Part shown: one piece after another, positions 1-733 of the stretch
How positions within the stretch are numbered: position 1 is the stretch's first letter
Layout: each line of letters opens with the position of its first letter
Source: a virus
Taxonomy: Duplodnaviria > Heunggongvirae > Uroviricota > Caudoviricetes
Length of the DNA: 4,746 nt
Virus record (IMG/VR): IMGVR_UViG_2690316028_000005
Direction: 5' to 3' (one strand)
The notes under the pieces: generated by a model
Seen by the model: the letters and a program-made list of their open reading frames with translations, nothing else
Databases searched by the model: none
What the model was told of the DNA's origin: nothing
Translations under genes and position numbers: made by a program

Positions 1-3
1 CAC

Positions 4-170
4 AAATATGCCAACGTTGGCACATTTCAAGTAGCTCAATCATTCCCAGCGCTGGGAATCATCCTCAAAACCGCAAACGTCTGCGGTTTCAGTACAATCA
101 GGTAATATAGATTGGGGAGCTTTACTGGTAGAAATATAACGTTTCAAAAGCGCCAGCGTTGGCGCTTTTG
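4..170. repeat. Cluster of four palindromes/hairpins: 4-27 (24 bp, one mismatched pair), 42-59 (18 bp perfect), 68-89 (8-bp arms, 6-nt centre), 145-170 (10-bp arms, 6-nt centre)
   Basis: Hand reverse-complement checks. Three of the four share a CCA(A/G)CG(T/C)TGG core: CCAACGTTGG 11-20, CCAGCGCTGG 46-55, CCAGCGTTGG 153-162. No ORF of 60 aa or more in the region. Confidence 0.6.
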
Positions 171-201
171 AAGGCTGGCAATATCAATAAGCTAATGATG
201 A

Positions 202-230
202 TTGCATCATCTGTTCCAAGTTAGTACACT
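202..230 (+). promoter_or_regulatory. Putative sigma70 promoter for a small RNA (-35 TTGCAT 202-207, 17-bp spacer, -10 TACACT 225-230)
   Basis: Hexamer spacing read from sequence; predicted start near 237, the first base of the left inverted-repeat arm. Match to consensus is only moderate. Confidence 0.3.
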
Positions 231-236
231 TATCCC

Positions 237-270
237 TGTTAGTGGATGCGTGACGCGCTCAGGTTGAGGC
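237..270. repeat. Left arm of a 34-bp inverted repeat (partner 488-521)
   Basis: Reverse complement of 237-270 equals 488-521 at 33 of 34 positions; the one difference would be a G-U pair if both arms are transcribed from the + strand. Confidence 0.9.
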
Positions 271-311
271 TCATTACCTTGAACAGAGATTCATCACCTT
301 AAGCCCCAAAG

Positions 312-346
312 AAAAAAGCCTGACCTCACCAGTTGGGCTTTTTTTT
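312..346. terminator. Bidirectional rho-independent terminator
   Basis: A-tract 312-317, 7-bp stem 318-324 with 332-338 (GCC/GGC base, two wobbles), 7-nt loop, then T8 at 339-346. The reverse complement also ends in a T-run. Confidence 0.55.
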
Positions 347-368
347 GTCCGTTATTTACTCCAGTCCT

Positions 369-396
369 TTGATTACATTGCTGATACCCTTATAAT
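369..396 (+). promoter_or_regulatory. Putative sigma70 promoter for the toxin mRNA (-35 TTGATT 369-374, 16-bp spacer, -10 TATAAT 391-396)
   Basis: Perfect consensus -10 and TTGA-type -35; predicted start near 403, giving a leader of about 190 nt before the ORF at 593. No LexA box (CTGT-N8-ACAG) seen. Confidence 0.5.
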
Positions 397-487
397 CACG
401 GCGTTAGTGGGTGTCGCGTTCTGACACAACGCAGGCATGTGAAACGTGTTCAAGCCCTGGCTGGATTACGGGTGGTGCCGCTCCAGT

Positions 488-521
488 GCCTCAACCTGAG
501 CGCGTCATGCATCCACTAACA
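488..521. repeat. Right arm of the 34-bp inverted repeat; proposed sRNA target site in the toxin mRNA leader
   Basis: Partner of 237-270. Lies 61-94 nt upstream of the GGAG at 582-585 and overlaps an AUG at 507 that heads a 9-codon upstream ORF. Confidence 0.9.
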
Positions 522-592
522 ATGCAACACCGTTAACCAGGCAGTGGAAGGGCTTTAACGATGATGCCGCGCTCCTGTAGTGGAGCAAACGG

Positions 593-676
593 ATGAAGGG
601 ATTTCTTCAAATCGCTGTCATCGCTCTTAAGGCGATTGTTGCCTTTATTGAGTTGATTCTGGCCTGCTTACCGTAA
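593..676 (+). CDS. 27-aa hydrophobic single-helix peptide, candidate TisB-like type I toxin (MKGFLQIAVIALKAIVAFIELILACLP)
   Basis: Hand translation; below the ORF-track size cutoff. GGAG 582-585 sits 7 nt before the ATG; in-frame TAG at 578-580 rules out an upstream extension. Resembles E. coli TisB as I recall it (MNLVDIAILILKLIVAALQLLDAVLKYLK): about half of the 20 core positions identical, including the helix-embedded Lys. Confidence 0.5.
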   Translation: MKGFLQIAVIALKAIVAFIELILACLP

Positions 677-695
677 GCGGTCAGGAAACGTAAGT

Positions 696-733
696 AAGGC
701 CACCGGCTCACCCCCGGTGGCCTTTAACATTTC
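696..733 (+). terminator. GC-rich hairpin (11-bp stem 696-706 with 714-724, 7-nt loop) followed by TTTAACATTT; possible 3' end of the toxin transcript
   Basis: Perfect 11-bp stem verified by hand, 20 nt after the toxin stop. The U-tract is interrupted, so termination efficiency is uncertain. Confidence 0.4.

Follow-up and report, generated by a model that had tools for sequence, protein, structure and literature searches.

Introduction

How is a small hydrophobic toxin kept silent when its start codon lies behind a long leader, and what does an antisense sRNA act upon when it pairs with that leader far upstream of the ribosome-binding site? Between positions 190 and 735 of the window (the whole 4,746-nt stretch of viral DNA analysed here, IMG/VR record IMGVR_UViG_2690316028_000005), two units on the same strand, an sRNA gene and then a toxin gene, raise this question. 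The original prediction, made from the sequence alone, described a type I toxin unit with a long, translationally inert leader, which our analysis supports, and took tisB as its reference system, with the pairing site possibly serving as a ribosome standby site or as the entry site of an upstream ORF (uORF). The reference system proves to be a different one: the locus is homologous to dinQ/agrB, whose shown mechanism is a four-element RNA switch. The feature probably represents the toxin half of a prophage-borne type I toxin-antitoxin module of the dinQ/agrB (dql) family, and its control is most likely exerted by a four-element RNA switch in the leader.

The dinQ switch was established experimentally, through SHAPE probing, the use of compensatory mutants, translation in vitro and RNase III assays (PMC5066626). 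Specifically, the dinQ +1 RNA is inert, with element 1 paired to element 2 and element 3 (the anti-SD) closing the Shine-Dalgarno sequence (SD, element 4); loss of 43 nt leads to 2:3 pairing and an open SD, and AgrB lying over element 2 re-closes the SD (PMC5066626). Experiments on the dqlB/agrB modules of pOXA-48 and the IncX3 plasmid pOXA-484 have demonstrated a toxic peptide, an sRNA that rescues from it by base pairing, pairing mutants that compensate each other, and addiction (PMC12365149; PMC12317039).

Results

A conserved promoter without a LexA box precedes a predicted 328-nt toxin mRNA

The sigma-70 promoter that had been predicted, TTGATT and TATAAT separated by 16 nt, is present at 369..396 on the + strand, the strand of all features described below. 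It is the sole sigma-70-like site in 1-1300, and shuffled sequences give a mean of 1.8, so the number of matches is unremarkable; we regard the promoter as real because it is conserved and not because of the scan count. In 8 diverged homologues, the TTG of the -35 element and the TATAAT are invariant, and the spacer of 16-17 nt is variable. The predicted start, G403, lies 7 nt past the -10 element and corresponds to dinQ +1, the G of GUUAG, in agreement with the start near 403 and the leader of about 190 nt proposed originally. We reconstructed the dinQ numbering of Kristiansen et al. on the K-12 sequence, where every published element falls at its stated coordinates. Thus numbered, the predicted primary transcript (403..730, 328 nt) is homologous throughout to dinQ +1..331, and its leader (403-592) measures 190 nt.

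No CTG-N10-CAG motif occurs near the promoter (340-420), the nearest being at 1100; the K-12 dinQ LexA box is TACTGTATGATTATCCAGTT. The absence of a LexA box, and with it of SOS control, is therefore confirmed as predicted. Because there is no LexA box, transcription of the toxin gene is probably constitutive.

The ORF encodes a 27-residue probable relative of DinQ

The predicted hydrophobic toxin ORF at 593..676 encodes 27 residues (MKGFLQIAVIALKAIVAFIELILACLP). Among 21 distinct window-type sequences, its variable sites are distributed 7/1/19 over the first, second and third codon positions, and the alternative codons comprise 23 synonymous and 8 non-synonymous ones, all 8 of them conservative, a pattern that indicates purifying selection on the ORF. 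The peptide has no match in Pfam, NCBIfam or PHROGs, and the NCBIfam models toxin_DinQ and DqlB give none even at E<=10. A profile comparison by hhalign against a DinQ/Dql profile yields 86% probability (E 4.9e-6) with 44% identity over 18 columns, and the ORF is in frame and co-linear with that of the Erwinia DinQ-type locus in the mRNA alignment described below.

Downstream of the ORF, the GC-rich 11-bp hairpin of the original prediction is found at 696-706/714-724 with 100% complementarity. This 3' stem-loop or terminator (696..724, repeat I12), equivalent to SL9 of dinQ and followed by UUUAACAU, forms helix 17 of the covariation structure, in which 94% of cells are paired and 6 pairs have changed on both sides. 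Ahead of it, the near-invariant motif GGAAACGUAA (684..693) recurs in the 3' UTR of dinQ, dqlB, window-type and shoB-like loci.

The mRNA aligns end to end with dinQ and dqlB mRNAs

Relatives of the toxin locus were gathered by DNA patterns. The key to its identity is a distant blastn match on the Erwinia tasmaniensis plasmid pET35, where the locus encodes MKALIDKVLIVLKALVALLELIRQFID, called DinQ by NCBIfam at 42.6 bits (cut-off 30), and where the upstream sRNA matches Rfam AgrB above threshold at 54 bits. A second homologue, L017, has a 31-aa toxin identified as DqlB by NCBIfam (67 bits) and an sRNA identified as AgrB (58 bits), and annotated dqlB stands at the homologous place on thousands of plasmids. 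Kinship with TisB or ShoB had been suspected from the look of the peptide and was dropped after Rfam AgrB and NCBIfam DinQ/DqlB identified these divergent homologues.

An alignment of 26 mRNAs (A4), including those of the window, K-12 dinQ, Erwinia and the dqlB loci L017 and L022, shows the window mRNA (403-730) aligned over all 328 nt with the K-12 dinQ mRNA and the plasmid dqlB mRNAs. This end-to-end alignment therefore places the locus in the dinQ/agrB (dql) family and not with tisB. In particular, the window has a 5' UTR homologous to that of dinQ, equivalents of SL2 and SL4, and four elements that can form the 1:2, 2:3 and 3:4 pairings. With tisB/istR-1 it has in common a long inert primary transcript, an sRNA site far upstream of the ribosome-binding site and an SD in a stable hairpin and, as proposed for this mRNA, activation by 5' processing; unlike here, tisB is LexA-controlled and uses a standby site, whereas here the target is complementary to the anti-SD. 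The toxin has no Pfam match, and cmscan detects no IstR at E<=1 over the window or at E<=10 over 190-360.

The 3'-UTR pattern also retrieved shoB-like loci, which is why we regard dinQ, dql and shoB as sharing UTR modules. At the RNA level, shoB/ohsC and zorO/orzO belong to the same superfamily: shoB-like loci have in common with the window the GGUGGUG block, GGAAACGUAA and the AAGG...CCUU UAAC hairpin, and the terminator loop CUCACCAG of the window sRNA recurs in OrzO-P and OhsC, whose cmscan matches are weak. They differ in their toxin peptides and in having divergent sRNA genes. The window peptide is unrelated to ShoB, the OhsC model (RF02495) scores 17.8 bits against a threshold of 50, and only UTR motifs are held in common. 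As a separate observation, GGAAACGUAA (684-693) and the GGUGGUG block (470-477) are near-invariant across dinQ, dqlB, window-type and shoB-like loci (K-12-type shoB, L010 and L021) despite their differing toxins; the switch model does not account for what these two motifs do.

Mutually exclusive leader pairings are preserved by covariation

Three inverted repeats of the region, I1, I3 and I18, correspond to the sRNA:2, 2:3 and 5' lock pairings, respectively. The 5' lock (403..452, equivalent to element 1) pairs 403-414 with 509-520 and 444-452 with 497-505 in the minimum-energy fold, and its helices 1 and 5 are 98% and 81% paired across the alignment. In the predicted fold of the full-length RNA, the lock hides both the sRNA seed site and element 2. 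It is followed by a conserved stem-loop equivalent to dinQ SL2 (459..490), which carries the invariant GGUGGUG loop region; its helices 6 and 7 are 98-100% paired and covarying, and the block is conserved even in shoB-like loci. Element 2, with its core at 498-504, and the seed partner CCACUAAC (513-520) both lie within the sRNA target (488..521). In the equivalent of dinQ SL4 (524..567, helix 8), pairing amounts to 86%, and two-sided changes affect 8 pairs. Element 3, the anti-SD (564..575), has two alternative partners, element 2 (498-508) and the SD arm. In the latter case it forms the SD-sequestering hairpin (571..586), in which GCUCC (571-575) pairs with GGAGC (582-586) and buries the SD, GGAG at 582-585. 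This hairpin (helix 9) is 91.5% paired; its sequence differs by lineage and always pairs, appearing as GCUCC/GGAGC, CUCCUCU/AGAGGAG, CUCCAU/AUGGAG or CUCCC/GGGAG.

Across the 26 sequences, the full-length fold as a whole is 88.9% paired, versus at most 45% in slid controls. The 2:3 duplex (498-508 with 564-574) is 91% paired, with 9 of its 15 pairs changed on both sides, and slid controls reach 31-63%. The structure tested for covariation was derived from the window sequence, and since window-type sequences are for the most part close relatives of one another, much of the signal stems from comparison with the dinQ/dqlB outgroups.

Given its composition, the leader has no exceptional stability (z = -0.61 versus shuffled sequences), so the description of it as structured holds by covariation and not by energy. 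Neither the scan count nor the stability statistic is remarkable, and we argue function from comparison. The small hairpin at 411..427 of the original prediction can form, with 80% of cells paired and some two-sided changes, yet the full-length minimum-energy fold does not include it, and it shows up in folds only with the target blocked.

The individual states have energies similar to those of dinQ. The 2:3 pairing amounts to -24.2 kcal/mol here versus -24.9 in dinQ, the 1:2 pairing to -33.2 versus -31.1, and the 3:4 hairpin, which is stronger here, to -9.4 versus -6.2; forcing the 2:3 state costs +2.7 kcal/mol here versus +3.1 in dinQ.

Folding leaves the SD closed and bears on a standby alternative

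Truncation of the 5' end opens the target in the folding model: positions 488-521 go from 37% to 55% unpaired, and the seed partner 513-520, 23% unpaired in the full-length RNA, becomes 93-100% unpaired. A seed site that is masked and then opened by truncation would fit a "double lock". The SD, in turn, has a probability of being unpaired of about 0 for 5' ends at 403, 420, 435, 448 and 460, and the equilibrium probability of the 2:3 state is 0.005; folds of the sRNA-blocked RNA did not show an open SD either. ViennaRNA also reproduces the published +44 fold of dinQ itself only partly, so the folding evidence on the SD is weak either way. Since thermodynamic folding failed to reproduce SD opening, we rely on covariation.

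These predictions bear directly on a standby mechanism of the tisB type, by which the SD hairpin would always stay closed and the processed, single-stranded region 488-521 would load a 30S subunit that slides into the transiently open SD, with the sRNA occupying the loading site. Both the near-zero SD accessibility in every 5' form and the opening of the target upon truncation speak for such a mechanism, and the dinQ authors state that standby is not excludable for dinQ (PMC5066626). It is a live rival because folding keeps the SD closed and the software only partly reproduces the dinQ +44 fold. A pure standby site, however, needs no complementarity to the anti-SD, yet the 2:3 pairing is kept here through two-sided changes in 9 of 15 pairs; moreover, the locus has no homology to tisB or IstR, and the compensatory mutants of dinQ support the switch. 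On balance we judge the standby reading rather unlikely and retain the four-element switch.

The upstream ORFs are not conserved entry sites

The 9-codon uORF at 507..536 (ATG at 507, TAA ending at 536) had been put forward as a possible entry site within the sRNA-pairing region, its U being the G-U position of the sRNA duplex. The second part stands: G250/U508 is the one G-U pair. The uORF itself was rejected as non-functional. Its AUG is present in only 3 of 21 distinct close relatives (the window, L008 and L036), has no Shine-Dalgarno sequence, and is absent in dinQ and dqlB. In the other 18, the position mostly reads ACG, which turns the G-U into a G-C and makes the sRNA pairing perfect, or else ACA, CCA or TCT. 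AUG 507 is a by-product of a C-to-U transition, the same transition adding a U508-A564 pair to the 2:3 duplex, and by its distribution the uORF is not a conserved entry site.

A second uORF was observed at 561-596, with 11 codons (AUGAUGCCG...GGAUGA) and an SD-like GGAAGGG (546-552) 8 nt upstream. The frame spans the hairpin of anti-SD and SD and stops at a UGA that overlaps the AUG of the toxin, which recalls mok/hok; this overlap is automatic because the second codon of the toxin starts with A. The AUG is found in most window-type sequences and is missing in six (L012, L013, L018, L027, L032 and L033, several of which have GUG); the frame is another one in L016 and Erwinia, and the ORF is absent in K-12 dinQ.

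Either uORF could in principle admit ribosomes that open the toxin SD by translating, as in mok/hok. Both are present in the window, and the second has its SD-like sequence, crosses the hairpin, ends in AUGA and keeps its AUG in most window-type sequences. Set against this, neither is a conserved leader ORF of the mok/hok kind, given the 3 of 21 relatives and the missing SD for AUG 507 and, for 561-596, a start and frame that are unconserved beyond the closest relatives. Entry through a uORF is accordingly very unlikely, and the switch is again the preferred reading.

The predicted antitoxin sRNA is encoded on the same strand as the toxin

The sRNA promoter (202..230), TTGCAT and TACACT separated by 17 nt, is too weak for the consensus scan and is conserved in homologues: in 8 diverged ones, TTG and TA.ACT are invariant at fixed spacing, and the spacer sequence varies. 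The AgrB-like antitoxin sRNA of about 110 nt (238..347) is indicated by its inverted repeat with the leader, its fold and a sub-threshold Rfam match. It is predicted to start at about G238 with the 5' end GUUAGUGG. Its 5' GUUAG and antisense segment (237-270) are largely unstructured in the fold, and it ends in a Rho-independent terminator (310-347) with a 15-bp stem. The Rfam AgrB model (RF02891) scores 19.2 bits, below the gathering score of 40, with a full-length match (239-346) that agrees with the prediction in coordinates and strand; other sub-threshold cmscan scores are 23.9 bits for OrzO-P and 17.8 bits for OhsC, and a cmscan of the whole window gives chance-level matches only. In the terminator, the stem covaries and the loop CUCACCAG is invariant. 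The same loop (window 318-340; L003 2790-2822) is common to AgrB-like sRNAs and the OrzO-P model, which hints at a shared origin or a functional loop.

The sRNA segment 237-270 is complementary to 488-521 over 34 nt at 97% (inverted repeat I1), which confirms the sRNA-pairing region of the original prediction. The dinQ family has about 30 nt of sRNA complementarity near +88 to +119, and the target here occupies mRNA positions 86-119. sRNA and target covary between loci, including the compensatory change A261T/T497A (A-U to U-A) in L005 and L007. In one metagenome contig (L027), sRNA and target were seen to differ at five positions, all of them transitions giving G-U wobbles; because all five changes are of this kind, pairing is kept there without exact complementarity.

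In all 20 window-type loci that have upstream sequence (19 by exact match, L027 by inspection), the sRNA gene is upstream of the toxin gene and transcribed in the same direction, giving an inverted repeat. In all five dinQ/dqlB loci (K-12 dinQ, Erwinia, L019 and two dqlB loci) it is divergent, giving a direct repeat, so that the window locus lacks the divergent sRNA of the dinQ family. The T1TAdb account of the ShoB, TisB, Zor and DinQ families presumes a fixed organisation and a "correct orientation" (PMC8594479), and no mention of a same-strand sRNA/toxin arrangement was found in the literature searched. Additionally, L018 combines a window-like sRNA body with an sRNA promoter region that it has in common with the much more divergent L016 (alignment A7, columns 25-70), a mosaic that points to the exchange of modules among variants by recombination.

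Four palindromes, perfect or nearly so, were noted upstream of the sRNA gene at 3-30, 39-62, 68-89 and 143-172; the copies at 3-31 and 145-173 are 76% identical, and 143-172 resembles a bidirectional terminator.

The locus is rare, unannotated and prophage-borne

Of 5426 complete E. coli genomes, 9 carry the locus, in a gene-free gap of about 1 kb in a prophage that carries tape-measure, Mor-family and Gp27-family genes. These 9 genomes contain 19 matching places for the toxin-antitoxin query (median 2, up to 3 per genome); some strains thus seem to carry several or partial copies, the best place per genome being the one inspected. E. coli AW1.7 is one carrier strain. Searches elsewhere recovered the locus from 4 species-representative genomes out of about 185,000, from 11 metagenome contigs and from several IMG/VR viral contigs. 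Among plasmids, tblastn of the toxin detects the Citrobacter IncF plasmid pRHBSTW-01013_2 only, and blastn against a phage collection gives no match. Genes for a small-terminase-like protein, endonuclease VII and an integrase accompany the locus in the window prophage. In RefSeq the locus is unannotated.

Two members of the collection stand apart. In Dryocola boscaweniae (L025, about 4960-5230), a deletion joins the sRNA -10 region GAGTACAC to the leader at ...ACATCCACTAAC, removing the sRNA body, the toxin promoter and half of the leader, element 2 included; the toxin ORF and the SD hairpin remain. L025 is probably an inert remnant made via GTACAC microhomology. In L023, a MAG labelled Advenella kashmirensis (betaproteobacterial), the locus is nearly identical to enterobacterial ones, and the 606 bases extracted are identical to the metagenome contig L028, which likely reflects mis-binning or contamination and not true host range. 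On the viral contig L010, the shoB-like locus (609-807) lies about 0.6 kb downstream of matches to C4 antisense RNA, to its a1/b1 targets and to isrK, which mark an immunity region of the P1/P7 type.

The rarity of the locus, the loss of the sRNA and half of the leader in Dryocola and the G-U in the window duplex could be read as signs of decay, with the window locus a prophage relic whose toxin and sRNA no longer function. Such a reading is at odds with the strong third-position bias in the ORF, the conservation of both promoters, the compensatory changes between sRNA and target and the preservation of the SD hairpin and the 2:3 pairing, and we consider it highly improbable. A functional module of the dinQ/agrB family is the reading that we carry forward.

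Discussion

Compared with K-12 dinQ/agrB (PMC3567139, PMC5066626), the window mRNA is alignable from +1 to the 3' hairpin, with the same GUUAG start, SL2, SL4, four mutually exclusive elements of similar energies and an sRNA site at 86-119 (88-119 in dinQ). Both modules combine a 27-aa single-helix toxin with an sRNA made of a 5' GUUAG, about 30 nt of antisense and a terminator. Unlike dinQ/agrB, the window has no LexA box and no agrA paralogue, its sRNA is same-strand and not divergent, its toxin is about 44% identical over 18 aligned residues and outside the NCBIfam models, and its sRNA has the longer linker of the two and stays under the Rfam threshold; it lies in a prophage, whereas dinQ occupies the gor-arsR chromosomal site. 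With dqlB/agrB (pOXA-48, IncX3 pOXA-484; PMC12365149, PMC12317039), it shares a dinQ-like module on a mobile element and the same leader architecture (L017, L022). DqlB, however, has 31 aa with an extra internal segment and a divergent sRNA that Rfam recognises as AgrB, and dqlB is found on thousands of plasmids, the window type on one.

We infer the steps of the mechanism from homology to the dinQ mRNA, and covariation supports them here. About 50 nt at the 5' end of the primary transcript would pair with the target region and act as a lock against both translation and sRNA binding; such an RNA would be inert because a hairpin between the anti-SD (571-575) and the SD (582-586) keeps the SD closed. 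5' processing near 446/447, homologous to dinQ +44, would free element 2 (498-508), which would pair with element 3 (564-574), draw the anti-SD off and expose the SD for toxin synthesis. The sRNA 5' end GUUAGUGG would seed on CCACUAAC (513-520) and zip up 34 bp over element 2; with the sRNA bound, element 3 would return to the SD, and the duplex would be an RNase III substrate. The sRNA would act indirectly, because its site lies about 70-105 nt upstream of the start codon. A constitutively transcribed module would serve prophage maintenance or addiction, as shown for plasmid dqlB/agrB.

The same-strand arrangement may add a further layer. Upon read-through of the sRNA terminator, an sRNA-toxin co-transcript could fold on its own target into a 34-bp intramolecular duplex cleavable by RNase III. 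We tentatively raise the possibility, itself rather unlikely, that the window type forms a third, separate clade of DinQ-like modules, borne by phages, where the antitoxin gene is inverted to the same strand upstream, the read-through co-transcript silences itself, and the module is tuned for prophage maintenance or exclusion and not for DNA damage. The window type is set apart here by comparison with dinQ and dqlB, and it may or may not equal the "dqlA" group named in 2016. Taken together, the unrecognised toxin and sRNA, the missing LexA box, the prophage context and the same-strand sRNA describe a variant of dinQ/agrB that is not new in principle.

With this locus, the DinQ-like type I toxin-antitoxin systems gain a clade associated with prophages. 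Recent work has shown these systems to be major determinants, though under-annotated ones, of the stability of resistance plasmids. The clade is missed by current tools (RefSeq, NCBIfam and Rfam), and pipelines presuming a divergent sRNA would skip it. It also provides an independent comparative test of the dinQ switch, as the target:anti-SD pairing is kept by compensatory changes in a sequence-diverged lineage. The practical gain is modest, consisting of better annotation models and a natural variant for the effect of orientation on antitoxin control. If the same-strand, self-silencing reading is true, the module would be robust to upstream phage transcription.
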